This document shows positions 11,786-60,519 of a stretch of DNA of 64,000 bases, in pieces. This DNA comes from Escherichia coli (GTDB taxonomy: Bacteria; Pseudomonadota; Gammaproteobacteria; Enterobacterales; Enterobacteriaceae), in NCBI RefSeq assembly GCF_024700885.2, contig NZ_CP117016.1; one strand, 5' to 3'. Below the pieces are notes generated by a model that saw nothing but the letters and a program-made list of their open reading frames with translations, was not told the DNA's origin and ran no database searches. The translations under genes were made by a program, and so were the position numbers. How positions within the stretch are numbered: the first letter of the stretch is position 1; the number at the start of each line of letters is the position of its first letter.

Positions 11786-11869
11786 CTGATGATTATTCCT
11801 TTTCCGCAGGTGACAATTTGATTTATTCAGGAAGTCTGTACCGTTTCCTGAAAGTGTTTGTGGGTCAAC

Positions 11870-13099: not shown

Positions 13100-13202
13100 T
13101 CATACTCTTTAAAAATTAAGGATGTCAGTATAAATAATTAAAGCGGCTATTCACGGTACCGCCGCTTCTGACTGTGTTTTTAATACATTACGTGTCCAGT
13201 AA

Positions 13203-14396: not shown

Positions 14397-14922
14397 CAGA
14401 CTGGTGGCCGCACCGGTAAGGCCGTTTTGCAGAAAGCGGGCGAGAGAGTCTACATCCCCATTTACCGTCTTATATCACTGGTGCTGGCAGACAGGAGTTT
14501 CATGAAACAATAACCCGAAATCACCAGTGTCGTTCAATGTGGCAACTGTTGGAAAAGGTTCGTCACTTTATGGTTACCGTCAGCCTATTCCCCGGTGGAA
14601 TGCATGGGCTAGCTAAAGTGTAGCAGTATTAGGATCTGTTATTTAGATTCGCAGGTGGGGGAGTGGGTAACGGATAATTCTACCGTAGCTAAACACAATC
14701 CGATAAATAAATAGCCCTATTGAGTTGTGGGTGGATGTAGTGATAATTGATGGATAAAAATATTATTTTTTTTGATGCTGATACCTTAATGGTTAATGAA
14801 CCAAATGGAATAATCTTAGTGTGTTGCTTTTTTATCTGACGTTAATTCCGCACTTGCTTATTATGCACAGAAAACATGGCGATAGTTTGCTAGGGTTATT
14901 TTGAGGAAAGTAAAGTATAATT

Positions 14923-15690: not shown

Positions 15691-15708
15691 GCTTGATGAA
15701 TTTTTTTT

Positions 15709-18315: not shown

Positions 18316-18330
18316 CTGGAGTAAGAAATA

Positions 18331-18765
18331 ATGAGATACCGTATAATGTCTTTATCCTGTGTAGTGTTTCTGATGATAGGAGGACTGTCTCAGGCTGCAG
18401 AGATTACGTTAGTAAGCCACAGGAGTACGGGAAGTCAGTTACGTGATGGCATGATACTGGCGACAGGACGAATTATCTGTCGGGAAATACATACAGGGTT
18501 TCAGATATGGATGAATGATCGTCAAGAGGGAGGACATCCGAGGCATTATGTTATACAAAATAGTAAAGGAAACCAAGGCGAGTTACGGGTCAGGATAGGC
18601 GGTAATAGCTGGTTTTCTTCTTTGGATGAAGAATGGCAGGGGTGGATCAGGCTAGGAAAGGAAAAACAAGTTAATTTTGATGTGATAGTCGATGGAGAAC
18701 AGTATATTCCTCCAGGTAAATATATATTCTCAGTAAGTGGTAAATGTATGGCATCAGAGATATAA
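18331..18765 (+). CDS. AfaD/AggB-like invasin subunit
   Basis: 144-aa secreted protein with …ATGRIICREIHTGFQIWMNDRQ… region resembling AfaD-family invasins. Confidence 0.55.
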   Translation: MRYRIMSLSCVVFLMIGGLSQAAEITLVSHRSTGSQLRDGMILATGRIICREIHTGFQIWMNDRQEGGHPRHYVIQNSKGNQGELRVRIGGNSWFSSLDEEWQGWIRLGKEKQVNFDVIVDGEQYIPPGKYIFSVSGKCMASEI

Positions 18766-18875
18766 GAGTATGTGTCTACTGATACTATTTTGATTTTTAT
18801 AATATTTCATATTAATTGTATGGAAAATATTATTTCTATTTAAGTAGTAGTTAATGTTATTTAAGAGAGGTTTAT

Positions 18876-41023: not shown

Positions 41024-43455
41024 TCCAGCCCCATCGCCCGCAAATGCTCGGCCACTTTCTCGCTCAACGCCTCAACGGAGGCTTCAAGCGCTAGCAACGG
41101 TTCAGCATAACGCTCTTCCAGCTCCTTTACGCGCGACGCCAGTTGCTGGGTAATACGCTCAATCTCCGCCTTGATCCCTGCCTGCAACGTTGCCAGCCAC
41201 TTATCCTGCACTACCAGCGTTTTAATCGCTGCTTCATCCAGCGTGGGATAATGTTTAAACACCGCCCGATCCAGCGCTTCTTGTGCGGCTTTCAGCGCTT
41301 TTTTCGCACTGGCTTCGGCCTTAATTAGCGCCAGGCAGCGGTTCAGCACTGCCAGCTCATCTGGGCCGGCAGTGGTTTTCTTTAACTGTGCTAGACGGGC
41401 ATTCACCAGCTTTTGCGTCACCTTATCTTTATCGTTCTTCGCCTCGGCCAGCAGATCCTCTTCACCTGCCTGCTCCTCGATGAATTCCACTAGCTGACGA
41501 CTGGCTTCTTCACTGCGCTCCTGCGCGCGGTTCAGCGCATCCAGCAGTTCCGGGAAACAGCGAATTTCCACCAGCGAACGGGGCAGCACATCGGCCTTGT
41601 AGCGCCGTTTGGTAAACTCGAAATCGTGCGTTTCTTTCCAGATGTTTTTGCCATCTTTGCCTTTCACCGGCTGAAGCTCGCGGATTTGCGCGGCGGCTTG
41701 CCAGCCATCCTGCATAATCGCATACACATCGTCTTGCATGACATCAGTCCAGTAATCCATCAGGATCTGGTACACGCTGTATTTGTTCAGCAACTCACTG
41801 TTGGCGTACTGCGCCAATAGCATTTCGCTGATATCGTGGATTAGCGCTTTGGGTTTATCACCTTTGCGAATCTCTTCCAGACTTGCCTCTTTCACCCACG
41901 CTTTAAACGGTAGCAGGCTGCGGGTGGCAAAATCCTTAAACTCCTGATGCGCCAGAATGGTCGGTTTCACCTGTTGCGCGTTCACCTGCGCCCGACAGTA
42001 ACCGGGACGGTCGTCAGCAAACAGCACGTTGCGCAGGGCAGGGAATACCCGCCAGTAATCTTGCAAAGCATCCACATCGCGTGCCGGAATACCGCCCTGT
42101 AAGTGCGCGGTCAGATCGTGTAAATCTTCCGGCTCGCCGCTCTCGATATAGCGAGGAATATTCAGGTTGTAATCATTTCCGGCGATCTCGCTGGAGGGCA
42201 CCATCCGGCTGTAGCCAGGTACCGTTCGCTGATGGTTGAACACGTCCACAATGCGGTGAATATCTCGGCTACGCAGGCGGTTCTTGTTGCCATCTTTGAT
42301 AAAGCCCCGGCTGGCGTCGATCATAAAAATGCCTTTGCGGCTGTGGGCGTGCTCTTTATCAATCACAATGATGCACGCCGGGATGCCGGTGCCGTAAAAC
42401 AGGTTGGCTGGCAAACCAATAACGCCTTTGATATAGCCCTGCTTGATTAGATTTTCACGGATATTCGCTTCGGCGTTACCGCGAAACAGTACGCCGTGGG
42501 GCAGGATCACCGCGCCTTTGCCGGTACTTTTCAGGCTTTTAATGATATGCAACAAAAAAGCATAATCGCCGTTTTTTTCCGGCGGAATACCCCAGCCGAA
42601 GCGTTCAAACGGATCTTTTTTCGGCGTCAGCCCGTTGGTCCAGTTTTTATTGGAAAAAGGCGGGTTCGCCACGGCAAAATCGAAGGCTTTCAGTTTGCCG
42701 TTCGCCTCTTTCCACTGCGGATCGCTCAGCGTATTGCCCTGCCAGATTTTCGCGGTGGCATTGTTATGCAGAATCATGTTCATCCGCGCCAGCGCACTGG
42801 TAGCGTTATCCATCTCCTGGCCGAAAATCGACAGTCCGCGCCGGGCTTCATCATTCACTTTCAACAGCAGCGAACCAGAGCCACAGGTTGGGTCATAAAC
42901 CGTTGCATCTTGCGGAGTATCGGGAGTAATACCAATCACCTTCGCCAGAATACGTGACACCTCCGCTGGAGTGTAAAACTGCCCTTTACTCTTACCGGAT
43001 TCGGTTGCGAAGTGACGCATCAGATATTCATAGGCATCGCCCAGCAGATCGTCGCCTTCGGCCCGGTTGCTGGAGAGATTTAACCCTTCAAAGATACCGA
43101 CAAGCTTGCTCAGGCGGTCAATCATTTCCTTGCCTTTGCCGAGCTTATCTTCGTCGTTAAAGTCGGCTTCGTCGATGACGCCCTTCAGGCCGTTCTCTTC
43201 CGCCAGCTTGTGGATGATTTTGTTGATTTTGTCGCCGATCTCTTTGTCATTTTTCAGCGCAACCATATCGTCAAAGCTGGCTCCTTTGGGTATCACGATC
43301 ATCCCGTAAGGATCGCCTTTATACTTATCGGAAACGTACTTCATAAACAGCAGGGTCAGTACATAGTCTTTGTACTGGCTGGCGTCCATCCCGCCACGCA
43401 GTTCGTCGCAGCTTGCCCACAGGGAAGAATAGAGTTCGGTTTTTTTGATAGCCAT
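41017..43455 (-). CDS. hsdM: Type I restriction-modification DNA methyltransferase (HsdM) with long C-terminal coiled-coil-rich extension
   Basis: 812-aa; N6-adenine MTase motifs YDPTCGSGSLL (motif I) and VANPPFS (motif IV); C-terminal ~300 aa Ala/Glu/Lys/Leu-rich. Confidence 0.8.
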   Translation of the reverse strand: MAIKKTELYSSLWASCDELRGGMDASQYKDYVLTLLFMKYVSDKYKGDPYGMIVIPKGASFDDMVALKNDKEIGDKINKIIHKLAEENGLKGVIDEADFNDEDKLGKGKEMIDRLSKLVGIFEGLNLSSNRAEGDDLLGDAYEYLMRHFATESGKSKGQFYTPAEVSRILAKVIGITPDTPQDATVYDPTCGSGSLLLKVNDEARRGLSIFGQEMDNATSALARMNMILHNNATAKIWQGNTLSDPQWKEANGKLKAFDFAVANPPFSNKNWTNGLTPKKDPFERFGWGIPPEKNGDYAFLLHIIKSLKSTGKGAVILPHGVLFRGNAEANIRENLIKQGYIKGVIGLPANLFYGTGIPACIIVIDKEHAHSRKGIFMIDASRGFIKDGNKNRLRSRDIHRIVDVFNHQRTVPGYSRMVPSSEIAGNDYNLNIPRYIESGEPEDLHDLTAHLQGGIPARDVDALQDYWRVFPALRNVLFADDRPGYCRAQVNAQQVKPTILAHQEFKDFATRSLLPFKAWVKEASLEEIRKGDKPKALIHDISEMLLAQYANSELLNKYSVYQILMDYWTDVMQDDVYAIMQDGWQAAAQIRELQPVKGKDGKNIWKETHDFEFTKRRYKADVLPRSLVEIRCFPELLDALNRAQERSEEASRQLVEFIEEQAGEEDLLAEAKNDKDKVTQKLVNARLAQLKKTTAGPDELAVLNRCLALIKAEASAKKALKAAQEALDRAVFKHYPTLDEAAIKTLVVQDKWLATLQAGIKAEIERITQQLASRVKELEERYAEPLLALEASVEALSEKVAEHLRAMGLEW

Positions 43456-44732: not shown

Positions 44733-45677
44733 ATGGATTTAATTATGGAATGGAGATTTTTAGGTTCTCTATCAGAGGCCAGGAAATCTGGCTGTAGCGG
44801 AGTTTATCTTATTGTCCATAAAGGACTTTTCAGTCGTGTGGTTTACGTTGGGGTAAGTTGTAATGTAGGTAGAAGGATAACCGAACATTACGACGGTTAT
44901 CTTAGAGGAAATCGAACAATTTACGACGCTGGTCACGACGAAGACGTTTATCGCTTCATGTCAGCTTATAAAATTCATAACCACACAAAATACTATCAAG
45001 CCTTGGCGAATGATTATAAGATATGGGCATCTACCACAATGTATTCTGATTTGCCGAAAAACATGCTAGCAAAAAGCCAAACCTTTGATACTGATTGGCA
45101 GAGCATTGCATTAGAAAAATATATTCCTCAACTGGTAGTATGGGCCCTTCCAATGGCAAAGTACTGTTATTCAAATGCAAGCAGGATTGAAAGTGTAATC
45201 CAATCAAAGCTCATTAAATCTTTTGATTTGAGAGGTTTTTTTAATATAAAGCAATTAAGCATATTGGGTAAAATTGAATATCCCTATATGGAAAAGGTCA
45301 AAGTTTTCATTATTAACACACCTGATTTAGACCCGGCATCCCAGCTTATTTTTAGCAATCTATATAACAAAAAAACTGATAACAACTTCTGTAAAGAGTT
45401 CCGTTCACAATTTAAAAGCGAGATTTTTCAGAGGGAAAGTGAAACTCAGAGAAAGCGAACTATCAGGGAGCATAAGGTATCTCTTTATGAAAATTATGGC
45501 AAGCCTTGGACTTTAAAGGAAATGGAAAAACTTAGAGTCATGCTTGTCGATTTTGATTTGTCCCCGATAGAAATATCTGAGTATCTAGGAAGAGAGCCGC
45601 GCTCTATATCTAAAAAAATAAGCGAAAATGATAAAGTTACTAATTATAAATGGCGAGAGAGCGTCGGCTGGTTGTGA
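44733..45677 (+). CDS. Hypothetical protein with N-terminal GIY-YIG-like nuclease motif and C-terminal HTH-like region
   Basis: 314-aa AT-rich ORF; GVY-x12-YVG-x5-GRRITEH pattern near N-terminus; C-terminal …WTLKEMEKLRVMLVDFDLSPIEISEYLGREPRSISKKI… resembles a sigma-r4/LuxR-type HTH. Confidence 0.5.
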   Translation: MDLIMEWRFLGSLSEARKSGCSGVYLIVHKGLFSRVVYVGVSCNVGRRITEHYDGYLRGNRTIYDAGHDEDVYRFMSAYKIHNHTKYYQALANDYKIWASTTMYSDLPKNMLAKSQTFDTDWQSIALEKYIPQLVVWALPMAKYCYSNASRIESVIQSKLIKSFDLRGFFNIKQLSILGKIEYPYMEKVKVFIINTPDLDPASQLIFSNLYNKKTDNNFCKEFRSQFKSEIFQRESETQRKRTIREHKVSLYENYGKPWTLKEMEKLRVMLVDFDLSPIEISEYLGREPRSISKKISENDKVTNYKWRESVGWL

Positions 45678-45892: not shown

Positions 45893-46765
45893 ATGAATCC
45901 GTCTGATGCCATTGAGGCAATTGAAAAACCGCTCTCCTCCCTGCCTTACTCACTTTCCCGTCACATCCAGGAACATCTGCGCAAACTCACCAGTCACGAA
46001 CCCGTGATTGGCATTATGGGTAAAAGCGGGGCCGGTAAATCCTCACTCTGTAATGCACTGTTTCAGGGGGAGGTCACCCCGGTCAGTGATGTTCACGCCG
46101 GCACCCGGGAAGTGCGGCGCTTCCGTCTGAGTGGCCACGGTCACAGCATGATTATCACTGACCTGCCCGGGGTGGGCGAGAGCCGGGACAGGGATGCAGA
46201 GTATGAAGCCCTGTACCGTGACATTCTGCCTGAACTTGACCTGGTACTGTGGCTGATTAAAGCCGATGACCGTGCCCTGTCTGTGGATGAGTATTTCTGG
46301 CGACACATACTGCACCGGGGACATCAGCAGGTGCTGTTTGTGGTGACGCAGGCCGACAAAACGGAGCCCTGCCATGAATGGGATATGGCCGGCATTCAGC
46401 CTTCTCCCGCACAGGCACAGAACATTCGGGAGAAAACGGAGGCGGTATTCCGTCTGTTCCGGCCCGTACATCCGGTTGTTGCCGTATCGGCCCGCACCGG
46501 CTGGGAACTGGATACGCTGGTCAGTGCGCTAATGACAGCACTTCCCGACCATGCCGCCAGTCCCCTGATGACCCGCCTGCAGGACGAGCTGCGCACGGAA
46601 TCTGTCCGCGCTCAGGCCCGTGAACAGTTTACCGGTGCGGTGGACCGGATATTTGACACGGCGGAGAGCGTCTGTGTTGCCTCTGTTGCCCGTACGGTTC
46701 TGCGTGCCGTCCGTGACACGGTGGTCTCTGTTGCCCGCGCTGTATGGAACTGGATTTTCTTCTGA
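45893..46765 (+). CDS. YeeP/YkfA/YfjP-family GTPase (CP4-like island protein)
   Basis: P-loop GKSGAGKSSL and G-domain motifs; immediately upstream of Ag43 as in CP4-44-like modules. Confidence 0.65.
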   Translation: MNPSDAIEAIEKPLSSLPYSLSRHIQEHLRKLTSHEPVIGIMGKSGAGKSSLCNALFQGEVTPVSDVHAGTREVRRFRLSGHGHSMIITDLPGVGESRDRDAEYEALYRDILPELDLVLWLIKADDRALSVDEYFWRHILHRGHQQVLFVVTQADKTEPCHEWDMAGIQPSPAQAQNIREKTEAVFRLFRPVHPVVAVSARTGWELDTLVSALMTALPDHAASPLMTRLQDELRTESVRAQAREQFTGAVDRIFDTAESVCVASVARTVLRAVRDTVVSVARAVWNWIFF

Positions 46766-47137
46766 ACACTCTGCCAGGGGAAATGCCTGATTACATTGCG
46801 TTAACCAACTGAAAACATGATACAAACACTCCATCCCCCTCCTGTTTCTCTTGCGTGACTGCCCTGCTGTTAATAGAATAAAACGATCGATAAAACAGGT
46901 ATCGATCGTTACCATCGATCGTTTATAGTGGTTAATGGTCTGCGAAAAGGCAGCTGAATCTCTTCATCATGCAGAACGGAATTGCACACAACGGACTGAT
47001 ACTTCTCTGGCGGATGAGAGAGGGGAAGCATTTATGTCCGGGAAAAACCACTTTATCTGACCATGCTGTTTTGTACCTGCCGGTATCCACATTTGTGGGT
47101 ACCGGCTTTTTTATTCACCCTCTGTAAGGAAAAGCTG

Positions 47138-49984
47138 ATGAAACGACATCTGAACACCAGCTACAGGCTGGTATGGAATCACATTACGGGCACCCTGGTG
47201 GTGGCTTCCGAACTGGCGCGCTCACGGGGAAAACGCACCGGTGTGGCGATTGCGCTGTCTCTTGCTGCTGTCACATCAGTTCCGGCACTGGCTGCTGACA
47301 CGGTTGTACAGGCGGGAGAAACCGTGAGCGGCGGAACACTGACAAATCATGACAACCAGATTGTTCTCGGTACGGCCAACGGAATGACCATCAGTACCGG
47401 TCTGGAGTATGGGCCGGATAACGAGGCCAATACCGGCGGGCAATGGATACAAAATGGCGGTATCGCCAACAACACTACTGTCACCGGTGGTGGTCTTCAG
47501 AGAGTGAATGCCGGAGGAAGCGTTTCAGACACGGTTATCAGTGCCGGAGGCGGACAGAGCCTTCAGGGGCAGGCAGTGAATACCACTCTGAACGGCGGTG
47601 AGCAGTGGGTACATGAAGGCGGGATTGCAACGGGTACCGTCATTAATGAGAAGGGCTGGCAGGCCGTCAAATCCGGCGCAATGGCAACCGACACGGTTGT
47701 GAATACCGGCGCGGAAGGGGGACCAGATGCAGAAAATGGTGATACCGGGCAGTTTGTTCGCGGAAATGCCGTACGTACCACCATCAATAAAAATGGTCGT
47801 CAGATTGTGGCTGTTGAAGGAACAGCAAATACCACTGTGGTTTATGCCGGCGGCGACCAGACGGTACACGGGCATGCGCTGGATACCACACTGAATGGCG
47901 GTTACCAGTATGTGCACAACGGAGGCACAGCCTCTGACACGGTTGTAAACAGTGACGGCTGGCAGATTGTCAAGGAAGGTGGTCTGGCGGATTTCACCAC
48001 CGTTAACCAGAAAGGCAAACTGCAGGTGAACGCCGGTGGTACAGCCACGAATGTCACCCTGAAACAGGGTGGAGCACTGGTCACCAGTACTGCGGCAACG
48101 GTTCTTGGCAGCAACCGTCTGGGCAATTTCACGGTGGAAAACGGTAAGGCTGACGGCGTTGTTCTGGAGTCCGGCGGTCGCCTGGATGTACTGGAAGGCC
48201 ATTCAGCGCAGAAAACACGGGTGGATGACGGCGGAACCCTGGCAGTGTCTGCCGGTGGTAAGGCAACAGATGTCACCATGACATCCGGTAGTGCCCTGAT
48301 TGCAGACAGTGGTGCCACTGTTGAGGGGACCAATGCCAGCGGTAAGTTCAGTATTGATGGCACATCCGGTCAGGCCAGCGGACTGCTGCTGGAAAATGGC
48401 GGCAGCTTTACGGTTAATGCCGGGGGACAGGCCAGCAACACCACTGTCGGACATCGTGGAACACTGATGCTGGCTGCCGGGGGAAGTCTGAGTGGCAGAA
48501 CACAGCTCAGTAAAGGCGCCAGCATGGTACTGAATGGTGATGTGGTCAGTACCGGCGATATTGTTAACGCAGGGGAGATTTACTTTGACAATCAGACAAC
48601 ACCGGATGCCGTACTGAGCCGTGCTGTTGCAAAAGGCGACTCCCCGGTAACGTTCCATAAACTGACAACCAGTAACCTCACCGGTCAGGGTGGCACCATC
48701 AATATGCGTGTTCGCCTTGATGGCAGCAATGCCTCTGACCAGCTGGTGATTAATGGTGGTCAGGCAACCGGCAAAACCTGGCTTGCGTTTACAAATGTCG
48801 GAAACAGCAACCTCGGGGTGGCAACCTCCGGACAGGGTATCCGGGTTGTGGATGCACAGAATGGCGCCACCACAGAAGAAGGTGCGTTTGCCCTGAGTCG
48901 CCCGCTTCAGGCCGGCGCCTTTAACTACACCCTGAACCGTGACAGCGATGAAGACTGGTACCTGCGCAGTGAAAATGCTTATCGTGCTGAAGTCCCCCTG
49001 TATACATCCATGCTGACACAGGCAATGGACTATGACCGGATTCTGGCAGGCTCCCGCAGCCATCAGACCGGTGTAAACGGTGAAAATAACAGCGTCCGTC
49101 TCAGCATTCAGGGCGGTCATCTCGGTCACGATAACAACGGCGGTATTGCCCGTGGAGCCACGCCGGAAAGCAGCGGCAGCTATGGCTTCGTCCGTCTGGA
49201 GGGTGACCTGCTCAGAACAGAGGTTGCCGGTATGTCTCTGACGACAGGGGTGTATGGTGCTGCAGGCCATTCTTCCGTTGATGTTAAGGATGATGACGGT
49301 TCCCGCGCCGGCACGGTCCGGGATGATGCCGGCAGCCTGGGCGGATACCTGAATCTGACACACACGTCCTCCGGCCTGTGGGCTGACATTGTGGCACAGG
49401 GAACCCGCCACAGCATGAAAGCGTCATCGGACAATAACGACTTCCGCGCCCGGGGCTGGGGCTGGCTGGGCTCACTGGAAACCGGTCTGCCCTTCAGTAT
49501 CACTGACAACCTGATGCTGGAGCCACAACTGCAGTACACCTGGCAGGGGCTCTCCCTGGATGACGGCCAGGATAACGCCGGTTATGTGAAGTTCGGGCAT
49601 GGCAGTACACAACATGTGCGTGCCGGCTTCCGTCTGGGCAGCCACAACGATATGACCTTTGGCGAAGGCACCTCATCCCGTGACACTCTGCGCGACAGTG
49701 CAAAACACCGTGTGAGTGAACTGCCGGTGAACTGGTGGGTACAGCCTTCTGTTATCCGCACTTTCAGCTCCCGGGGTGACATGAGCATGGGTACAGCCGC
49801 AGCCGGCAGTAACATGACGTTCTCACCCTCACAGAATGGCACATCACTGGACCTGCAGGCCGGACTGGAAGCCCGTGTCCGGGAAAATATCACCCTGGGC
49901 GTTCAGGCCGGTTATGCCCACAGCATCAACGGCAGCAGCGCTGAAGGTTATAGCAGTCAGGCCACGCTGAATGTGACCTTCTGA
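47138..49984 (+). CDS. flu: Antigen 43-family self-associating autotransporter adhesin
   Basis: About 949-aa; signal peptide MKRHLNTSYRLVWNHITGTLVVASELAR…, repetitive passenger, C-terminal beta-barrel ending …QATLNVTF. Confidence 0.8.
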   Translation: MKRHLNTSYRLVWNHITGTLVVASELARSRGKRTGVAIALSLAAVTSVPALAADTVVQAGETVSGGTLTNHDNQIVLGTANGMTISTGLEYGPDNEANTGGQWIQNGGIANNTTVTGGGLQRVNAGGSVSDTVISAGGGQSLQGQAVNTTLNGGEQWVHEGGIATGTVINEKGWQAVKSGAMATDTVVNTGAEGGPDAENGDTGQFVRGNAVRTTINKNGRQIVAVEGTANTTVVYAGGDQTVHGHALDTTLNGGYQYVHNGGTASDTVVNSDGWQIVKEGGLADFTTVNQKGKLQVNAGGTATNVTLKQGGALVTSTAATVLGSNRLGNFTVENGKADGVVLESGGRLDVLEGHSAQKTRVDDGGTLAVSAGGKATDVTMTSGSALIADSGATVEGTNASGKFSIDGTSGQASGLLLENGGSFTVNAGGQASNTTVGHRGTLMLAAGGSLSGRTQLSKGASMVLNGDVVSTGDIVNAGEIYFDNQTTPDAVLSRAVAKGDSPVTFHKLTTSNLTGQGGTINMRVRLDGSNASDQLVINGGQATGKTWLAFTNVGNSNLGVATSGQGIRVVDAQNGATTEEGAFALSRPLQAGAFNYTLNRDSDEDWYLRSENAYRAEVPLYTSMLTQAMDYDRILAGSRSHQTGVNGENNSVRLSIQGGHLGHDNNGGIARGATPESSGSYGFVRLEGDLLRTEVAGMSLTTGVYGAAGHSSVDVKDDDGSRAGTVRDDAGSLGGYLNLTHTSSGLWADIVAQGTRHSMKASSDNNDFRARGWGWLGSLETGLPFSITDNLMLEPQLQYTWQGLSLDDGQDNAGYVKFGHGSTQHVRAGFRLGSHNDMTFGEGTSSRDTLRDSAKHRVSELPVNWWVQPSVIRTFSSRGDMSMGTAAAGSNMTFSPSQNGTSLDLQAGLEARVRENITLGVQAGYAHSINGSSAEGYSSQATLNVTF

Positions 49985-50104
49985 TAATTCTGCATTGCCT
50001 CTCTGTGGTCCCGGTCATCATGACCGGGACCCGGACGGGGGAAAACGTTTCAGTGCCACATTCACTGGCATTCACAATAACATGATATTCATCACGGAGT
50101 GACT

Positions 50105-52621
50105 ATGTTACAGATAGTCGGCGCGCTGATTCTGCTGATCGCAGGATTTGCCATTCTTCGCCTTTTGTTCAGAGCATTAACCAGCACAGCGTCTGCGCTG
50201 GCAGGGTTCGTATTGCTGTGTCTGTTCGGCCCGGCTTTACTGGCTGGCTATATCACTGAACGCATAACCCGGTTATTCCATATTCGCTGGCTGGCAGGCG
50301 TATTTCTGACGATTGCCGGAATGATTATCAGCTTCATGTGGGGACTTGATGGTAAACATATCGCACTGGAGGCTCATACTTTTGACTCTGTAAAATTTAT
50401 TCTGACCACCGCTCTCGCCGCTGGTCTGCTGGCTCTTCCCGTGCAGATAAGAACCATTCAGCAGAACGGGCTCACACCTGAAGATATCAGCAAGGAAATT
50501 AACGGGTATTACTGCTGTTTTTATACTGCTTTTTTCCTTATGGCGTGTTCTGCATACGCACCATTGATCGCATTGCAGTTCGATATTTCACCCTCACTGA
50601 TGTGGTGGGGCGGGTTGTTGTACTGGCTGGCTGCATTAGTGGCGCTGCTATGGGCGGCCAGCCAGATCCAGGCGCTGAAAAGACTGACCAGTGCCATCCG
50701 CCAGACACTGGAAGAACAACCGGTGCTCAACAGTAAATCGTGGCTGAGCAGTTTGCAAAACGATTACAGCCTTCCTGAAACGCTGACGGAGCGCATCTGG
50801 CTGACACTCATTTCACAACGGATTTCCCGGGGAGAACTGAGGGAATTTGAACTGGCAGACGGAAACTGGCTACTGGACAATGCCTGGTATGAAAGAAACA
50901 TGGCGGGTTTCAACGAAAAGCTGAGAGAGAGCCTGTCATTTACCCCTGATGAACTGAAAACCCTCTTCCGGAACCGCCTGAATTTATCACCGGAAGCGAA
51001 TGACGATTTTCTCGATCGTTGCCTGGACGGCGGTGACTGGTACCCCTTTTCAGAAGGCCGCCGTTTTGTATCATTCCACCACGTGGATGAGCTTCGTATC
51101 TGTGCCTCCTGCGGGCTGACAGAAGTACATCATGCCCCGGAAAATCATAAGCCGGATCCGGAATGGTACTGCTCCTCTCTTTGTCGCGAAACAGAAACAC
51201 TGTGTCAGGACATTTATGAACGTTCTTACACCGGTTTTATTTCCGATGCAACGGCGAATGGTCTGATTCTCATGAAACTGCCGGAAACCTGGAGTACAAA
51301 TGAGAAAATGTTTGCTTCCGGAGGGCAGGGACATGGGTTTGCCGCTGAACGGGGAAACCATATTGTCGACAGAGTCCGTCTGAAAAACGCACGGATCCTC
51401 GGTGATAATAATGCCAGAAATGGAGCAGACAGACTGGTCAGCGGAACAGAAATCCAGACGAAATATTGTTCAACTGCAGCCCGTAGCGTCGGTGCGGCAT
51501 TCGACGGACAAAACGGACAGTATCGTTACATGGGAAATCATGGTCCCATGCAACTGGAAGTCCCCCGTGATCAGTATGCCGGCGCTGTGGAAACCATGAA
51601 GAATAAGATCCGCGAAGGTAAAGTACCCGGTGTAACCGATCCCGCAGAAGCGTCCCGGCTGATTCGTCGGGGACATCTGACTTATACCCAGGCCCGTAAT
51701 ATCACCCGGTTCGGGACCATCGAATCGGTCACTTATGATATTGCCGAGGGGTCGGTTGTCAGTCTGGCGGCCGGAGGGATCAGTTTTGCCCTGACGGCAT
51801 CGGTCTTCTGGCTCAGCACCGGCGATCGCGATGCTGCCCTGCAGACAGCTGCTGTCCAGGCAGGAAAAACCTTCACCCGCACACTGGCTGTCTACGTCAC
51901 AACCCAGCAACTTCACCGGCTCAGTGTTGTTCAGGGTATGCTGAAGCATATTGATTTTTCGACGGCCAGCCCGACTGTCCGGCAGGCGCTTCAGAAGGGG
52001 ACCGGTGCAGGAAATATCAGTGCCCTGAACAAAGTGATGAAGGGTACGCTGGTGACATCTCTGGCACTGGTAGCTGTCACAACCGGCCCTGACATGATCA
52101 AAATGTTGCGGGGACGGATCTCCGGTGCGCAGTTCATCAGGAATCTTGCCGTGGCATCTTCCGGTGTGGCAGGTGGTGCTGTCGGGTCAGTGGCGGGCGG
52201 GATATTGTTCAGTCCACTGGGACCATTTGGTGCACTGACAGGGCGTGTGGTTGGCGGTGTTCTGGGGGGAATGATTGCCTCCGCTGTATCAGGAAAAATT
52301 GCCGGAGCGCTGGTTGAAGAAGATCGCGTCAAAATTCTGGCAATGATTCAGGAGCAGGTGACATGGCTTGCCGGCAGTTTCCTGCTGACCGGACATGAGA
52401 TTGAAAATCTGAACGAGAATCTGGCCCGTGTTATCGATCAGAATGCTCTGGAGATCATTTTCGCCGCCGGTATACAACAACGGGCCGCGACCAATATGTT
52501 AATCAAACCACTGGTGGTCAGTATCATCAGGCAACGCCCCGTCATGGAATATGATGCATCCCATCTCGGCAATATGGTTAACCGACTGGAAGAAGCATTA
52601 CCCCCGGAGTTACCGGCATAA
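50105..52621 (+). CDS. Large inner-membrane protein of unknown function (YeeR-like position downstream of Ag43)
   Basis: 838-aa with N-terminal TM helices and Gly-rich C-terminal hydrophobic segment; GGAG SD upstream. Confidence 0.55.
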   Translation: MLQIVGALILLIAGFAILRLLFRALTSTASALAGFVLLCLFGPALLAGYITERITRLFHIRWLAGVFLTIAGMIISFMWGLDGKHIALEAHTFDSVKFILTTALAAGLLALPVQIRTIQQNGLTPEDISKEINGYYCCFYTAFFLMACSAYAPLIALQFDISPSLMWWGGLLYWLAALVALLWAASQIQALKRLTSAIRQTLEEQPVLNSKSWLSSLQNDYSLPETLTERIWLTLISQRISRGELREFELADGNWLLDNAWYERNMAGFNEKLRESLSFTPDELKTLFRNRLNLSPEANDDFLDRCLDGGDWYPFSEGRRFVSFHHVDELRICASCGLTEVHHAPENHKPDPEWYCSSLCRETETLCQDIYERSYTGFISDATANGLILMKLPETWSTNEKMFASGGQGHGFAAERGNHIVDRVRLKNARILGDNNARNGADRLVSGTEIQTKYCSTAARSVGAAFDGQNGQYRYMGNHGPMQLEVPRDQYAGAVETMKNKIREGKVPGVTDPAEASRLIRRGHLTYTQARNITRFGTIESVTYDIAEGSVVSLAAGGISFALTASVFWLSTGDRDAALQTAAVQAGKTFTRTLAVYVTTQQLHRLSVVQGMLKHIDFSTASPTVRQALQKGTGAGNISALNKVMKGTLVTSLALVAVTTGPDMIKMLRGRISGAQFIRNLAVASSGVAGGAVGSVAGGILFSPLGPFGALTGRVVGGVLGGMIASAVSGKIAGALVEEDRVKILAMIQEQVTWLAGSFLLTGHEIENLNENLARVIDQNALEIIFAAGIQQRAATNMLIKPLVVSIIRQRPVMEYDASHLGNMVNRLEEALPPELPA

Positions 52622-52696
52622 CGGCTATTCTGCGCCTTTTACGCTTTATCACCTGATTTGTCAGTGTCATCGTCATGACTCAGAGAGGTAAATACC

Positions 52697-53152
52697 ATGA
52701 TTCACCTGTTCAAAACCTGCATGATTACCGCCTTCATTCTGGGGTTAACGTGGTCTGCCCCACTCCGGGCACAGGATCAACGTTACATCAGTATACGCAA
52801 TACAGATACGATATGGCTCCCGGGAAATATTTGTGCCTACCAGTTCCGGCTGGATAATGGCGGAAACGATGAAGGATTTGGCCCCCTCACCATCACTCTG
52901 CAACTCAAAGACAAATATGGTCAGACGCTGGTGACCAGAAAAATGGAAACGGAAGCCTTTGGTGACAGTAATGCCACGCGAACCACAGACGCATTTATGG
53001 AAACGGAGTGCGTGGAAAATGTCGCCACAACCGAAATCATTAAAGCAACTGAAGAAAGTAACGGCCATCGTGTCAGTCTGCCGTTATCGGTTTTTGATCC
53101 CCAGGACTACCATCCACTGCTGATTACCGTTTCCGGAAAAAATGTTAACTGA
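52697..53152 (+). CDS. Hypothetical secreted protein
   Basis: 151-aa with signal peptide MIHLFKTCMITAFILGLTWSAPLRA. Confidence 0.45.
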   Translation: MIHLFKTCMITAFILGLTWSAPLRAQDQRYISIRNTDTIWLPGNICAYQFRLDNGGNDEGFGPLTITLQLKDKYGQTLVTRKMETEAFGDSNATRTTDAFMETECVENVATTEIIKATEESNGHRVSLPLSVFDPQDYHPLLITVSGKNVN

Positions 53153-53561
53153 TCCCTGAAGTCAGTTTCATGCTTCAGCCTCTGCCACAACGTATGGCAG
53201 AGGCTATTTATCAGGAGAAACCAGATATGCCGGGTTACACACAGAGTATGTCCTGGCTGAAGGATCTTTCTCATACGGGCAGACGGTGGCTGTCACAACA
53301 GCTTACCTTAATGTGCTTATTGAAGATGACCAGGTGCGCACTTCCGGCTGGTTATCCGCAACGCGGAAGGTCAGCGACGCTGGCGCTGCCGGAATACTGA
53401 ACCCTGTGCCGGAAAGCAGCTTAATGCGTGGCTCGCCAGTGAAGGGCTTCTCAGACAATAAACGTCATTGATTTCGTCCATCAGGCCGCGTCTTCTCCGG
53501 GAGACGCGGCTTTTTTCATTTATTACACCAGTAAATCTTAACCACCGATAAGGAGCAAAGT

Positions 53562-54383
53562 ATGCGATTAGCCAGTCGTTTTGGTTATGCTGCAAACCAG
53601 ATACGCCGTGACCGTCCACTGACACATGAAGAGCTGATGCACCATGTGCCGGGGATTTTCGGGGAAGATAAACACACGTCCCGAAGCCAGAACTATACGT
53701 ACATCCCCACCATCACCGTGCTGGAAAGTCTGCAGCGGGAAGGCTTCCAGCCATTCTTCGCCTGCCAGACCCGTGTGCGCGACCCGGGCCGTCGGGGATA
53801 CACAAAACACATGCTGCGTCTGCGGCGGGCCGGAGAGATAAACGGAGAACATGTCCCTGAAATTATTCTGCTCAACTCTCATGACGGTACCTCCAGCTAC
53901 CAGATGCTGCCGGGTTACTTCAGGTTCGTCTGCCAGAACGGGTGCGTCTGTGGTCAGTCTCTGGGGGAAGTGCGTGTTCCGCACCGGGGAAATGTAGTGG
54001 AGAAAGTTATCGAAGGGGCTTACGAGGTGGTGGGGGTTTTTGACCGGATAGAGGAGAAGCGTGATGCCATGCAGTCGCTGGTCCTGCCGCCACCGGCACG
54101 CCAGGCGCTGGCACAGGCGGCACTGACTTACCGTTATGGTGACGAACATCAGCCCGTCACCACCGCCGACATTCTGACGCCACGACGCCGGGAGGATTAC
54201 GGAAAGGACCTGTGGAGTGCTTATCAGACCATCCAGGAGAATATGCTGAAAGGGGGGATTTCCGGTCGCAGTGCCAGAGGAAAACGTATCCACACCCGTG
54301 CCATTCACAGCATCGACACCGACATTAAGCTCAACCGCGCATTGTGGGTGATGGCTGAAACGCTGCTGGAGAGTATGCGCTGA
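53562..54383 (+). CDS. DUF932-family protein (YfjQ/YafZ-like)
   Basis: 273-aa; size and position typical of CP4-like island modules. Confidence 0.5.
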   Translation: MRLASRFGYAANQIRRDRPLTHEELMHHVPGIFGEDKHTSRSQNYTYIPTITVLESLQREGFQPFFACQTRVRDPGRRGYTKHMLRLRRAGEINGEHVPEIILLNSHDGTSSYQMLPGYFRFVCQNGCVCGQSLGEVRVPHRGNVVEKVIEGAYEVVGVFDRIEEKRDAMQSLVLPPPARQALAQAALTYRYGDEHQPVTTADILTPRRREDYGKDLWSAYQTIQENMLKGGISGRSARGKRIHTRAIHSIDTDIKLNRALWVMAETLLESMR

Positions 54384-54474
54384 TGCCGTTTCCCTGAAAG
54401 CGCAGTTCTGACTCACGTCTGTCCCTTCCCCCGGGATTTCTTCCATTCATTTACTTTTTATAAGGAATAATCTC

Positions 54475-54960
54475 ATGACAACCGTCTTGCATAATTCCAC
54501 CACTCCTTCTGTTTCCGTAACCGCTGCATCAGGGAATGACCAGCCTCAGCTGGTTGCCACCATAGTCCCTGATGAACAGCGCATCAGCTTCTGGCCGCAG
54601 CACTTTGGCCTCATTCCACAGTGGGTGGCCCTGGAGCCCCGTGTCTTCGGCTGGATGGACCGTCTGTGTGAAGACTACTGCGGTGGTATCTGGAATCTGT
54701 ACACCCTGAACAACGGCGGGGCATTTATGGCACCCGAACCGGATGACGATGATGACGAAACATGGGTACTGTTCAATGCCATGAACGGTAACCGCGCTGA
54801 AATGAGCCCGGAAGCCGCCGGCATTGCTGCCTGTCTGATGACGTACAGCCATCATGCCTGTCGTACGGAGTGTTATGCCATGACGGTCCATTATTACCGG
54901 TTGCGGGATTACGCCCTGCAGCATCCGGAATGCAGCGCCATTATGCGCATCATCGACTGA
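54475..54960 (+). CDS. Antirestriction protein, KlcA/ArdB-like (YfjX/YafX class)
   Basis: 161-aa, acidic stretch PEPDDDDDETW; position upstream of RadC-like gene. Confidence 0.55.
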   Translation: MTTVLHNSTTPSVSVTAASGNDQPQLVATIVPDEQRISFWPQHFGLIPQWVALEPRVFGWMDRLCEDYCGGIWNLYTLNNGGAFMAPEPDDDDDETWVLFNAMNGNRAEMSPEAAGIAACLMTYSHHACRTECYAMTVHYYRLRDYALQHPECSAIMRIID

Positions 54961-54975
54961 ATGGAGAGAAGCACA

Positions 54976-55452
54976 ATGCAACAGCTTTCCTTTCTGCCCG
55001 GAGAGATGACGCCCGGCGAGCGCAGTCTCATTCTGCGGGCCCTGAAAACTCTGGACCGCCATCTTCATGAACCCGGCGTGGCCTTCACCTCCACCCGTGC
55101 GGCACGGGAATGGCTGATTCTGAACATGGCGGGACTGGAGCGTGAAGAATTCCGGGTGCTGTATCTGAATAACCAGAATCAACTGATTGCCGGTGAAACC
55201 CTCTTCACCGGCACCATCAACCGCACGGAAGTCCATCCCCGGGAAGTGATTAAACGCGCCCTGTACCACAATGCCGCTGCCGTGGTGCTGGCGCACAATC
55301 ACCCGTCCGGTGAAGTCACACCCAGCAAGGCAGACCGCCTTATCACGGAACGTCTGGTACAGGCACTGGGCCTGGTGGATATCCGGGTGCCGGACCATCT
55401 GATAGTCGGTGGCAACCAGGTTTTCTCCTTTGCCGAACATGGTCTGCTTTAA
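54976..55452 (+). CDS. RadC-like JAB-domain protein (YeeS/YkfG class)
   Basis: JAMM motif region …VLAHNHPSGEVTPSKADRLIT…. Confidence 0.65.
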   Translation: MQQLSFLPGEMTPGERSLILRALKTLDRHLHEPGVAFTSTRAAREWLILNMAGLEREEFRVLYLNNQNQLIAGETLFTGTINRTEVHPREVIKRALYHNAAAVVLAHNHPSGEVTPSKADRLITERLVQALGLVDIRVPDHLIVGGNQVFSFAEHGLL

Positions 55453-55514
55453 CCCGTCACAACCACATCACACCTGTTTTCACTTTTATCTTCTGTCTTC
55501 AGAGGTATCACATC

Positions 55515-55736
55515 ATGAGAATCATCACCCGTGGTGAAGCCATGCGTATTCACCAACAGCATCCTGCATCCCGTCTTTTTCCGTTCTGTACCGGTAAGTA
55601 TCGCTGGCACGGCAGTGCTGAAGCGTATACTGGTCGTGAAGTGCAGGATATTCCCGGCGTTCTTGCCGTGTTTGCAGAACGCCGTAAGGACAGTTTTGGC
55701 CCGTATGTCCGGCTGATGAGTGTCACCCTGAACTGA
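55515..55736 (+). CDS. DUF987-family small protein (YeeT-like)
   Basis: 73-aa ORF in canonical position before the CbeA/CbtA pair. Confidence 0.5.
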   Translation: MRIITRGEAMRIHQQHPASRLFPFCTGKYRWHGSAEAYTGREVQDIPGVLAVFAERRKDSFGPYVRLMSVTLN

Positions 55737-55898
55737 TGTTCCGTCACCCGGGAAACGAGTACGACCAGATGACCTCAGACGCCGCTGTGGATGAGGCCAT
55801 TCTCATCAATGCATACATCTTCACCGAAACCGGTCAGCGCGCCGGCTGACCTGTCATCGTTAAACCATTCTTAACCACTTTTCAGAGAGGATTTTATC

Positions 55899-56273
55899 GT
55901 GTCAGACAAACTCTCCGGGATAACTCATCCCGATGACAATCACGACCGCCCCTGGTGGGGGCTTCCCTGCACAGTGAGGCCCTGTTTTGGCGCTCGTCTG
56001 GTGCAAGAGGGTAACCGCCTGCATTACCTTGCCGACCGCGCCGGTATCAGAGGCCGCTTCAGCGACGCAGATGCATACCATCTGGACCAGGCCTTTCCGC
56101 TGCTGATGAAACAACTGGAACTCATGCTCACCAGCGGTGAACTGAATCCCCGATATCAGCATACCGTCACGCTGTATGCAAAAGGGCTGACCTGCGAAGC
56201 CGACACCCTCGGCTCCTGTGGTTACGTTTATCTGGCTGTTTATCCGACACCAGCACCCGCAACCACCTCATAA
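55899..56273 (+). CDS. cbeA: Type IV antitoxin, CbeA/YeeU family
   Basis: 124-aa; immediately upstream of CbtA-like toxin gene. Confidence 0.6.
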
Positions 56274-56319
56274 CCCCGAAGCTCTCACCTTTAGCACTAC
56301 CAGTTACAGAGAACTTAAG

Positions 56320-56694
56320 ATGAAAACATTATCCGACACACATGTACGGGAGGTATCTCGCTGCCCGTCTCCCGTCACCATCTGGCAGACACTGCTCATC
56401 CGACTGCTGGACCAGCATTATGGCCTCACACTGAATGACACACCGTTTGCCGATGAACGTGTGATTGAGCAGCATATTGAGGCAGGCATTTCACTGTGTG
56501 ATGCAGTTAATTTTCTCGTGGAAAAATACGCGCTGGTGCGTACCGACCAGCCGGGATTCAGCACCTGTCCCCGCTCTCAGTTAATAAACAGTATTGATAT
56601 CCTCCGGGCTCGCCGGGCGACCGGCCTGATGACCCGCGACAATTACAGAACGGTAAATAACATTACCCTGGGTAAGTATCCGGAGGCGAAATGA
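56320..56694 (+). CDS. cbtA: Type IV toxin, CbtA/YeeV family (cytoskeleton-binding)
   Basis: 124-aa [43 protein letters not shown]…. Confidence 0.65.
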
Positions 56695-57182
56695 TGAAAC
56701 TGGCCCTGACACTGGAAGCCGACAGCGTTAACGTACAGGCACTGAACATGGGGCGCATTGTCGTTGACGTCGATGGTATTGAGCTCGCTGAACTGATTAA
56801 CATGGTCTGCGATAACGGCTACTCCCTTCGTGTTGTTGATGAATCTGACCAGACCTCAGCAGAATGCACGCCACCATTTGCTACCCTTACCGGCATACGC
56901 TGCAGTACCGCACATATCACGGAAACGGACAACGCCTGGTTGTACTCGCTGTCACACCAGACCAGTGACTTCGGTGAATCAGAATGGATTCATTTTACAG
57001 GTAGCGGATATCTGTTACGTACCGATGCGTGGTCATACCCGGTTCTGCGGCTTAAACGCCTGGGGCTGTCAAAAACGTTCCGTCGTCTGGTCGTCACACT
57101 CATCCGGCGTTATGGCGTCAGTCTCATTCATCTGGATGCCAGCGCTGAATGCCTGCCGGGTTTACCCACTTTCGACTGGTAA
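56691..57182 (+). CDS. YeeW-like protein
   Basis: 163-aa ORF overlapping cbtA stop, canonical position in CP4-like modules. Confidence 0.5.
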
Positions 57183-57193
57183 CCAGGAACAAC

Positions 57194-57391
57194 ATGAAAT
57201 CATTAACCACGGAAACAGCGCTGGATATTCTGATTGCGTGGCTGCAGGACAATATCGACTGCGGATCGGGAATTATCTTTGACAACGATGAGGATAAAAC
57301 GGATTCAGCAGCACTGTTGCCCTGTATCGAACAGGCCCGGGAGGATGTCCGTACCCTGCGTCATCTGCAGCTTCTGCACCAGAACCGGTGA
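57194..57391 (+). CDS. Small hypothetical protein
   Basis: 65-aa ORF between yeeW-like and DUF4942-like genes. Confidence 0.35.
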   Translation: MKSLTTETALDILIAWLQDNIDCGSGIIFDNDEDKTDSAALLPCIEQAREDVRTLRHLQLLHQNR

Positions 57392-57475
57392 AGCTCACTC
57401 ACCAGACTTCATTCCTCTGACGCCAGCCTGCACAGGGCTGGCGTTTTCATTTATCTGCAAAAAGGAATATCGATT

Positions 57476-58318
57476 ATGTCAGATATCACAATCTCCCGTC
57501 CGGAAGTGGTCAACGGGCATACGGACGTTATCTGCTCAACCAGCATTCGCCACATTCTGGCTGTACGAAAGAGTACACTGTTGCAAATCGACACACTTAT
57601 CCGACAACTGGCTGAAATCTCGGTGCTGACGGAAAGCATCGGAGGTAAAACTGCCCCGGACTGGGCCATGAAACAGGATTTTCGCTGCGGCTGCTGGCTG
57701 ATGGAGAAACCCGAAACAGCAATGAAAGCCATTACCCGGAATCTTGATCGCGAAATCTGGCGTGACCTGATGCAACGTTCCGGGATGCTGTCATTAATGG
57801 ATACGCAGGCCCGTGATACATGGTACCGGTCACTGGAGTACGATAATTTTCCGGAAATCAGCGAAGCGAACATTCTGAGCACATTTGAACAACTGCACCA
57901 GAATAAGGATGAGGTGTTTGAGCGAGGGGTGATCAACGTCTTCAGAGGGCTGAACTGGAATTACAAAACCAATTGCCCCTGTAAATTTGGCAGTAAAATT
58001 ATCGTCAACAATCTGGTGAGATGGGACCGGTGGGGATTTCATCTTATCACCGGACAACAGGCTGACCGACTCGCCGATCTGGAAAGAATGTTGCACCTGT
58101 TCAGCGGTAAACCAATCCCCGACAACCGGGGAAACATCACCCTTCGTCTGGATGATCACATTCAGTCTGTTCAGGGTAAAGAGAGCTATGAAGATGAGAT
58201 GTTCAGCATCAGATACTTTAAGAAGGGCTCCGCGCATATCACGTTCAGAAAACCAGAACTGGTTGACAGACTGAATGATATTATCGCAAAACACTATCCT
58301 GATATGCTGGCAGTATAG
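57476..58318 (+). CDS. DUF4942-family protein (terminal gene of CP4-like modules)
   Basis: 280-aa ORF, last island gene before serX. Confidence 0.5.
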   Translation: MSDITISRPEVVNGHTDVICSTSIRHILAVRKSTLLQIDTLIRQLAEISVLTESIGGKTAPDWAMKQDFRCGCWLMEKPETAMKAITRNLDREIWRDLMQRSGMLSLMDTQARDTWYRSLEYDNFPEISEANILSTFEQLHQNKDEVFERGVINVFRGLNWNYKTNCPCKFGSKIIVNNLVRWDRWGFHLITGQQADRLADLERMLHLFSGKPIPDNRGNITLRLDDHIQSVQGKESYEDEMFSIRYFKKGSAHITFRKPELVDRLNDIIAKHYPDMLAV

Positions 58319-58467
58319 CTTTGCCAGTATGCTCAAAGATCGGAAATTGTCCGATAAGATATAATCGCGGGGCATATAAACCGGTTTCAGATGGCATACC
58401 CGATGGCATACTGTCTGGAAGGAAAAATAAAAAAGCGCATGTTAAACAATAACATGCGCTTATAATC

Positions 58468-58555
58468 TGGCGGTGAGGGGGGGATTCGAACCCCCGATAC
58501 GTTGCCGTATACACACTTTCCAGGCGTGCTCCTTCAGCCACTCGGACACCTCACC
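58468..58555 (-). tRNA. serX: tRNA-Ser (anticodon GGA)
   Basis: 88-nt; reverse complement reads GGTGAGGTGTCCGAGTGGCTGAAGGAGCACGCCTGGAAAGTGTG…GGTTCGAATCCCCCCCTCACCGCCA with long variable arm; adjacent to ghrA as at the serX locus. Confidence 0.85.
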
Positions 58556-58749
58556 AAATTGTTGTTCCTGTCTTGCTGGAACGGGCGCTAATTTAGGGAA
58601 ATCATGACCTGAGGTCAACAAACTTTTTTAAAAAATCGCGCGTTTATTCAAACTTCAATCAATATGCAGTTTTAATAAGCGAAATCTGCTTTTTTTGCCA
58701 CCGACCACGGATTTGTTATGCTGGTGGCTTTTGTAGATCATAACGATAA

Positions 58750-59727
<978 letters not shown>

Positions 59728-59781
59728 TAAAGCATCAGGTTTCCTGCTATCCTTGGCGGGAATTGAATACAGGAGAGAGTT

Positions 59782-60519
59782 ATGTATCCCGTCGACCTTC
59801 ATATGCATACCGTTGCTAGCACGCATGCATATAGCACATTGAGTGATTACATTGCCCAGGCCAAACAAAAGGGCATTAAACTTTTTGCGATCACCGATCA
59901 TGGCCCGGATATGGAAGATGCGCCGCATCACTGGCACTTCATTAACATGCGTATCTGGCCGCGAGTGGTTGATGGAGTAGGGATCCTGCGCGGCATCGAA
60001 GCTAACATTAAAAATGTTGACGGTGAAATTGACTGCAGTGGCAAAATGTTTGATTCGCTGGATCTGATTATTGCCGGTTTTCATGAGCCGGTGTTTGCGC
60101 CGCATGACAAAGCGACCAATACGCAAGCGATGATCGCCACTATCGCCAGCGGCAATGTGCATATAATAAGCCATCCCGGAAATCCGAAATATGAAATAGA
60201 TGTTAAAGCCGTTGCTGAAGCAGCTGCGAAACATCAGGTGGCGCTGGAAATCAATAATTCCTCATTTTTACACTCACGTAAGGGCAGTGAAGACAACTGT
60301 CGTGCGGTAGCCGCAGCGGTACGTGACGCTGGAGGTTGGGTGGCATTAGGCTCGGATTCTCACACCGCGTTTACCATGGGTGAATTTGAAGAGTGTCTTA
60401 AAATCCTCGACGCGGTAGATTTTCCGCCAGAGCGCATTTTGAATGTTTCTCCGCGCCGCTTACTGAACTTCCTTGAATCTCGCGGTATGGCACCGATTGC
60501 GGAATTTGCAGACCTTTAA
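59782..60519 (+). CDS. ycdX: PHP-domain phosphatase YcdX
   Basis: 245-aa [18 protein letters not shown]… PHP metal-binding histidines. Confidence 0.8.

Follow-up and report, generated by a model that had tools for sequence, protein, structure and literature searches.

A CP4-like module beside serX as the probable integrase-distal end of a complete serX island in Escherichia coli

A block of genes of the kind found in CP4-type elements ends next to the tRNA gene serX in a 64,000-nucleotide stretch of Escherichia coli DNA (from contig NZ_CP117016.1; this whole stretch is referred to as the window), and no integrase gene accompanies it. This raises the question of whether the element has been immobilised or whether its integrase is located to the left of the window, two possibilities that a preliminary description of the sequence had left side by side. 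According to the analysis presented here, the block at 45893-58467 is very probably the integrase-distal right end of a complete and conventional island of ~80.3 kb, which belongs to the family formed by the SRL pathogenicity island (SRL PAI), OI-43/48 (SpLE1, TAI) and PAI-serX. The gene content, both junctions, the flanking repeat, an intact integrase and the near identity to an island of E. coli O157 were all observed in this analysis.

Both ends of the island at serX

A second genome was used as a proxy for the sequence upstream of the window. When positions 45893-59800 were compared by megablast with 5,426 complete genomes of E. coli, strain MLI114 (NZ_CP117013.1) matched at 100%, and 111 kb of its record were rebuilt from three stretches. 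The window corresponds to positions 3184397-3248396 of this record on the reverse strand, and BLAST alignment over its whole length returned 3 mismatches in 64,000 bases and 0 gaps (99.995% identity) up to the window edge, a degree of likeness at which MLI114 can be taken as a very close proxy for the sequence on the left. Byte-for-byte identity of the two sequences was rejected when an exact string match failed, and BLAST identified three single-nucleotide polymorphisms (SNPs) as the sole cause. Positions below 1 are given hereafter as window equivalents in MLI114.

At the right-hand end, the only tRNA gene called by ARAGORN in the window is serX, whose 3' end points left, into the island. 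The tRNA gene is intact and the insertion lies at its 3' end. From 58468 on, annotation and comparison with K-12 identify core chromosome (serX, ghrA, ycdX, ycdY, ycdZ and csgGFED), and the genes to its right place serX in its normal chromosomal setting. Comparison of the locus with K-12 and other E. coli, as the preliminary description had proposed, places the resumption of K-12 homology at 58460 and reveals island ends that barely differ from their O157 counterparts. The elements of this junction are the following:

1-58467, no strand: part of the island inside the window (MLI114 alignment; K-12 homology resuming only at 58460; annotation)
58319-58467, no strand: island arm of attR, with motifs common to the integrase-proximal arm and nearly identical to attR of O157 Xuzhou21
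58346-58356: ATTGTCCGATA motif in the attR arm
58391-58399 and 58403-58411: two ATGGCATAC motifs in the attR arm, candidate integrase arm sites
58468-58481, no strand: right copy of the att core TGGCGGTGAGGGGG, the last 14 bp of serX, found again beside the integrase
58468-58555, minus strand: serX, intact tRNA-Ser(GGA) (ARAGORN; Rfam tRNA, 53.8 bits)

At the opposite end, MLI114 carries an integrase gene at 3268901-3270103 of its record, equivalent to -21706 to -20504 on the plus strand and thus 20.5-21.7 kb left of position 1. The protein has 400 amino acids, displays the Pfam domain set of P4-type integrases (Arm-DNA-bind_3, Phage_int_M and Phage_integrase) and retains all of its catalytic residues (R246, H337, R340, H363 and Y373). 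As an SRL/OI-48-type member of the P4 family, it is located outside the window at the serX-distal end and reads into the island. Beside it stand genes for an AlpA-family regulator (Phage_AlpA, E=5e-19) and a DUF3987/YfjI protein (E=5e-84), and the three together make up a proximal module of CP4 type. The left copy of the core TGGCGGTGAGGGGG was found at -21880 to -21867, 160 bp 5' of the integrase start codon, so that the insertion is flanked by 14-bp repeats of which the left copy is read from a 99.995%-identical genome. The core has no copy inside the island in the MLI114 region that was scanned, where its sole further occurrence is in a chromosomal RtT repeat left of the island. Together with the integrase, the presence of a perfect 14-bp direct repeat at both ends implies that the island is complete, with both att junctions intact, and spans -21866 to 58467 (~80,334 bp), of which 21.9 kb, including the integrase and attL, lie left of position 1.

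These results bear directly on the choice left by the preliminary description. Its statement that the window lacks an integrase was borne out for tyrosine recombinases: the RefSeq/PGAP annotation of MLI114 over 1-58467 lists only transposases of insertion sequences (IS), and tblastn searches of the window with the serX-island integrase and with K-12 IntF gave nothing below E=0.66. On these two grounds, a hidden integrase remnant of either of those two types was rejected. As to what the absence means, an integrase does lie beyond the left edge in MLI114, while immobilisation found no support. Likewise, an integrase and an attL repeat upstream, named in advance as the mark of a conventional complete island, are both present in MLI114, at a distance of ~21 kb instead of immediately upstream. 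Since the integrase and the att repeat were found there, the missing integrase in the window is an ordinary circumstance and nothing is lacking. Moreover, serX islands run to 60-110 kb, so the absence of the gene from a 64-kb window is uninformative on completeness.

The arms of the island were further compared by reconstructing a 323-bp attP, in which both island arms were joined in silico. Each arm of this reconstructed site holds two ATGGCATAC motifs, 12 bp apart, and one ATTGTCCGATA motif, and the arms share 15 direct 9-mer pairs versus 0.33 expected in shuffles. On the strength of these motif statistics, the ATGGCATAC repeats are probably arm-type integrase binding sites; an integrase that possesses an arm-binding domain would be expected to have its arm-type sites in such a pattern of shared motifs. 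The attR arm also contains the predicted serX terminator, a hairpin with a 12-bp stem followed by a T-run that extends from 58461 to 58433 on the minus strand and begins 6 nt past the end of the tRNA. The island would thereby provide serX with a replacement terminator of its own.

The same arrangement is widespread. The integrase and attL region is present at a coverage of at least 80% in 1259 of the 5426 complete E. coli genomes, with an identity of 99.6% in O157:H7 strains and of 99.2% (DNA) in ABU 83972, and the junction formed by the module, serX and ghrA occurs in 1123 of them. In SWHEFF_69 and PEC403, the integrase and the module are on one strand, ~60 kb apart.

Relatives, polarity and competing readings

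The island family, its att sites, its geometry and its measured excision are already known, and the identification made here matters little beyond correct annotation. OI-48/OI-43 of enterohaemorrhagic E. coli O157:H7 EDL933 (SpLE1 in Sakai; the tellurite-resistance and adherence island, TAI) occupies serX/serW. It is flanked by perfect 14-bp repeats TGGCGGTGAGGGGG, which correspond to the 3'-terminal 14 bp of serW and serX (Bielaszewska et al. 2011, PMC3064760) and recur unchanged at the Shigella SRL island (PMC3064760). In EDL933, the integrase, Z1559, occupies the ycdU side and the final gene, Z1664, adjoins serX, and complete excision of OI-43/48 was measured at ~2e-4 per cell (PMC3064760). 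In O157:H7 Xuzhou21, whose island is of the OI-48 type, the integrase differs from that of MLI114 at one of 400 residues (L276I), attL and attR are nearly identical to the junctions described above, and the locus has an identical layout (ycdU, int, cargo, DUF4942, serX, ghrA). Its module consists of GTPase, cah, cargo, DUF932, antirestriction, JAB, DUF987, YeeU, CbtA, DUF5983, DUF957 and DUF4942 genes, and the CbtA, DUF987, DUF957 and DUF4942 proteins are identical in both islands. OI-48/OI-43-type islands contain ter, ure and iha genes, which are missing from the island studied here; unlike them, it carries malX/enterotoxin genes, iro remnants, an afa-like chaperone-usher operon, ABC/TolC genes and a type I restriction-modification (R-M) operon with DarTG.

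According to its description in the literature, the SRL PAI of Shigella shares the serX site and the 14-bp repeats with the present island and differs from it in being 66 kb long and carrying resistance and fec genes. Its integrase has 99% nucleotide identity to that of OI-43/48 (PMC3064760), and its precise excision requires that integrase (review PMC7545054). The PAI-serX islands of extraintestinal pathogenic E. coli (ExPEC) carry salmochelin and Ag43 determinants (review PMC7545054). Those of CFT073, UTI89 and RS218 (S pilus, salmochelin, Ag43) have the same serX site, Ag43 and iro genes, whereas in the present island iroC, iroE and iroN are pseudogenes and the sfa/foc operon is missing. 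Both ends of the present island are those of the OI-43/48, SRL and PAI-serX elements, and the cargo is the only difference. Resemblance to P4-like elements is limited to the integrase type and the DUF3987 protein; annotations of the island and of MLI114 contain no P4 structural-hijack genes, although no search was aimed at the replication and capsid-hijacking set of P4 (alpha primase-helicase, sid, delta, psu, cos), and the element is not classed as a P4 prophage.

The preliminary description had implied that the position of the toxin-antitoxin end next to serX is something of an oddity, a suggestion that the comparison with other elements does not sustain. In CP4-6 of K-12, inserted at thrW, the polarity is the same: intact thrW is followed by ykfI/yafW, DUF987, RadC, antirestriction, DUF932 and GTPase genes, and intF is at the far end, with a 49-60-bp repeat of the 3' part of thrW located 110 bp beyond the intF start codon. 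CP4-6 differs from the serX island in this longer repeat, in its target tRNA and in its integrase, as IntF has 467 amino acids and no significant similarity to the serX integrase. Kinship between the two integrases as an explanation of the shared polarity was therefore rejected (tblastn). CP4-57 of K-12, inserted at ssrA, has the same order and strand (int, alpA, yfjI (DUF3987), cargo, GTPase, DUF932, antirestriction, RadC-like, DUF987, antitoxin, toxin), but its polarity is opposite, with the integrase adjoining intact ssrA and the toxin-antitoxin end distal. The order from int to toxin is common to all these elements, and only the orientation of the core in attP relative to the integrase gene differs. 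In this island family, as in CP4-6, the standard polarity places the toxin-antitoxin end against the intact tRNA gene. An integrase beside the tRNA gene is not universal, as the SRL/OI-48 family and CP4-6 place it beside the displaced tRNA fragment, and it should be borne in mind by island-finding programs and human readers alike that the integrase may stand at either end of an island.

In the mechanism that we propose, the P4-type integrase would recombine the 14-bp core TGGCGGTGAGGGGG at the 3' end of serX. Owing to the orientation of the core in attP, the integrase-proximal arm would come to adjoin, at the far end, the 14 bp of serX that have been displaced, and the toxin-antitoxin/DUF4942 arm would be joined to intact serX and supply the replacement terminator. 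In the reverse direction, recombination of the two cores by the integrase, perhaps together with the AlpA-like regulator, would yield an 80-kb circle and restore the empty serX site. By analogy with the measured members of the family, this copy of the island probably still excises. CbtA/CbeA may stabilise the island, and the antirestriction, RadC and DUF932 genes may aid its establishment after transfer.

Several points weigh against this reading of a complete island. The sequence left of position 1 is read from MLI114, at a distance of 3 SNPs, and not from the source genome itself. The MLI114 flank beyond attL lacks pgaABCD-dgcT-ycdU in comparison with K-12, evidence of rearrangement in the vicinity of the island, with attL itself intact. 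In addition, the interior, which abounds in IS elements and contains iro pseudogenes as well as a degenerate ileX-like tRNA (7683-7750), is heavily decayed; such a decayed and IS-rich interior implies that cargo has been gained and lost over time, and the 80 kb are not a pristine single acquisition.

A composite origin, in which the upstream integrase arrived with a separate element that inserted next to an earlier, integrase-less CP4-like remnant and both ends do not constitute a single unit of recombination, would accommodate the mosaic nature of the cargo (malX/enterotoxin, iro remnants, afa-like operon, type I R-M with DarTG) and the degenerate ileX-like tRNA as a possible captured junction. 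It is nevertheless highly improbable, as the same pair of integrase/attL and DUF4942/attR co-occurs in O157 with other cargo, both arms carry the ATGGCATAC and ATTGTCCGATA motifs, and CP4-57 has the same int-to-toxin order within one element. Internal copies of the 14-bp core, such as a tandem or composite insertion might have left, were sought and none was found inside the island. The idea of an immobilised island, with the module as a remnant that has lost its own integrase and distal att site, draws on the lack of an integrase in the 58.5 kb of island within the window, on an interior full of IS elements and pseudogenes and on the rearrangement of the left chromosomal flank versus K-12. The intact integrase and perfect 14-bp repeat 21 kb upstream in the near-identical MLI114, together with the match of both junctions to an OI-48-type island of O157 and the measured excision of OI-48 (PMC3064760), leave it with hardly any plausibility. 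Finally, a source genome unlike MLI114 upstream of the window, for instance through deletion of the integrase, is compatible with the 3 SNPs and with the O157 derivatives documented to lack the upstream junction (PMC3064760), but the identity of 99.995% over 64 kb without gaps up to the window edge and the presence of the integrase in 1259 genomes make it most improbable.

Genes of the right-end module

The module at 45893-58467 includes GTPase, DUF932, antirestriction, RadC-like, DUF987, CbeA-type and CbtA-type genes, all on one strand and in the same order as in CP4-6 and CP4-57, which upholds its description as the standard distal end of CP4-type elements (the architecture of CP4-6, CP4-44 and CP4-57 in K-12). 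Every family named in the preliminary description (GTPase, Ag43, KlcA-like, RadC-like, CbeA/CbtA, YeeW-like and DUF4942) was recovered by Pfam, and the 840-residue open reading frame (ORF) and the IrmA, frameshifted DUF905, DUF932, DUF987 and DUF957 genes are to be added to that list. The features, in order, are:

45893-46765, plus strand: YeeP/YkfA/YfjP-like GTPase, first gene of the conserved module (Pfam MMR_HSR1, E=7.9e-15; RefSeq 'GTPase family protein')
46883-47119, plus strand: Ag43 leader/regulatory region (Rfam RF00124, IS102 RNA, 72.3 bits)
47138-49984, plus strand: Ag43/Cah-family autotransporter adhesin (Pfam ESPR, AIDA x5, AC_1, Autotransporter)
50099-52621, plus strand: 840-aa ORF in a variable cargo slot (no Pfam/NCBIfam family)
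52697-53152, plus strand: IrmA-family protein (Pfam PF18673, E=1.6e-37)
53227-53461, plus strand: DUF905 gene, frameshifted pseudogene (RefSeq annotation of MLI114)
53562-54383, plus strand: DUF932 protein, YafZ/YfjQ-like (Pfam PF06067, E=3.4e-52)
54475-54960, plus strand: antirestriction protein of KlcA/ArdB type, YafX/LfgA-like (Pfam PF03230, E=2.5e-37)
54976-55452, plus strand: RadC-like JAB-domain protein, YeeS/YkfG-like (Pfam PF04002, E=7.7e-45)
55515-55736, plus strand: DUF987 protein, YeeT/YkfH-like (Pfam PF06174, E=7.8e-40)
55899-56273, plus strand: CbeA/YeeU type IV antitoxin (Pfam PF06154, E=9.8e-55)
56320-56694, plus strand: CbtA-family toxin (Pfam PF06755, E=5.7e-61; identical to WP_000854914.1 of O157 Xuzhou21)
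56691-57182, plus strand: DUF5983 protein, YeeW-like (Pfam PF25638, PF19419)
57194-57391, plus strand: DUF957 protein (RefSeq name, WP_000839282.1; 0 matches in Pfam/NCBIfam)
57476-58318, plus strand: DUF4942 protein, last island gene (Pfam PF13708, E=8.7e-69; WP_001280481.1, identical to the last island gene product of O157 Xuzhou21)

The end of the DUF4942 ORF is separated from serX by 149 nt, in good accordance with the ~150 bp reported before. The antitoxin and toxin genes are neighbours, with the antitoxin first, the arrangement of a putative type IV CbtA/CbeA pair. Three GATC sites are present in the Ag43 leader region (46885, 46904 and 46917), a trio that presumably resembles the switch through which Dam and OxyR bring about phase variation of flu in K-12.

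The 840-aa ORF had no match in Pfam or NCBIfam, and PADLOC returned only weak hits to PDC-M09B. When NCBIfam and PADLOC were applied to this ORF, to a 314-aa ORF at 44733-45677 and to the DUF4942, DUF5983 and DUF932 proteins, weak matches to PDC-M09B and LeoA/LeoBC were the only result. In O157 Xuzhou21, the slot after Ag43 is filled by dynamin-like, RdcB and patatin genes instead of the 840-aa ORF and IrmA, and the site of this ORF is thus a variable cargo position within the conserved module. The three SNPs that distinguish the window from MLI114 all fall within the right-end module, at 47091 in the Ag43 leader, at 52416 in the 840-aa ORF and at 52644 in the spacer that follows this ORF.

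Left flank, RtT repeats and island interior

Downstream of serX, K-12 has a tandem array of 181-bp RtT-RNA repeats on the strand of the tRNA gene, and every repeat includes 19 bp of the serX 3' end and, with it, the 14-bp core. K-12 has three copies of the repeat, MLI114 about one and a half and O157 Xuzhou21 none with a core; two of the K-12 repeats reach the Rfam threshold for RtT RNA, and the RtT-like repeat beside attL in MLI114 scores under the gathering cutoff. Integration of the island moves the RtT repeats ~80 kb away from serX and puts the island terminator in their place. A joint reading, in which occupancy of serX switches off RtT co-transcription and the RtT repeats serve as secondary or decoy attB sites, is rather unlikely; under it, use of the repeats as attB sites might explain the variable RtT copy number beside attL among strains. 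These consequences, if true, would be mildly new, and they constitute the only thread of this kind at the locus. Between phoH and attL, MLI114 has a single DUF2726 gene, where K-12 has pgaDCBA, dgcT, IS3, ymdE and ycdU, and the PGA biofilm operon is thus missing from this locus in MLI114.

Several further observations were made in the interior of the island. At 7683-7750 on the plus strand, there is a degenerate tRNA that resembles ileX/ileY and has a CAU anticodon context (Rfam tRNA, 30.7 bits versus a gathering score of 29; no ARAGORN call); it could be either an att fragment captured from another island or a decayed island-borne tRNA. Just downstream of it, also on the plus strand, a full-length match to the small RNA STnc100 (8169-8383; 136 bits) is directly followed by an STnc490-like match (8390-8476; 52.3 bits, under the gathering score of 56), which precedes a copy of IS150. 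At ~10000-18800, the iroC, iroE and iroN pseudogenes stand beside an intact iroD and adjoin a cluster of AfaD invasin, usher and chaperone genes, which suggests kinship with the ExPEC PAI-serX, modified by decay or reshuffling. An ABC-transporter/TolC-family cluster is located in the segment at ~22-27 kb, where G+C is low (29-35%). Near this segment, two oppositely oriented matches to group II introns (27235-27314, minus strand; 28751-28830, plus strand) enclose an IS481-family transposase gene and a gene with a group II intron maturase domain. In the RefSeq annotation of MLI114, darT-darG, which encode a toxin-antitoxin pair of the DNA ADP-ribosyltransferase kind, are inserted into the type I R-M operon hsdM, hsdS, hsdR (~34836-43455, minus strand), where they separate hsdS from hsdR, and an M48 peptidase gene comes after the operon.

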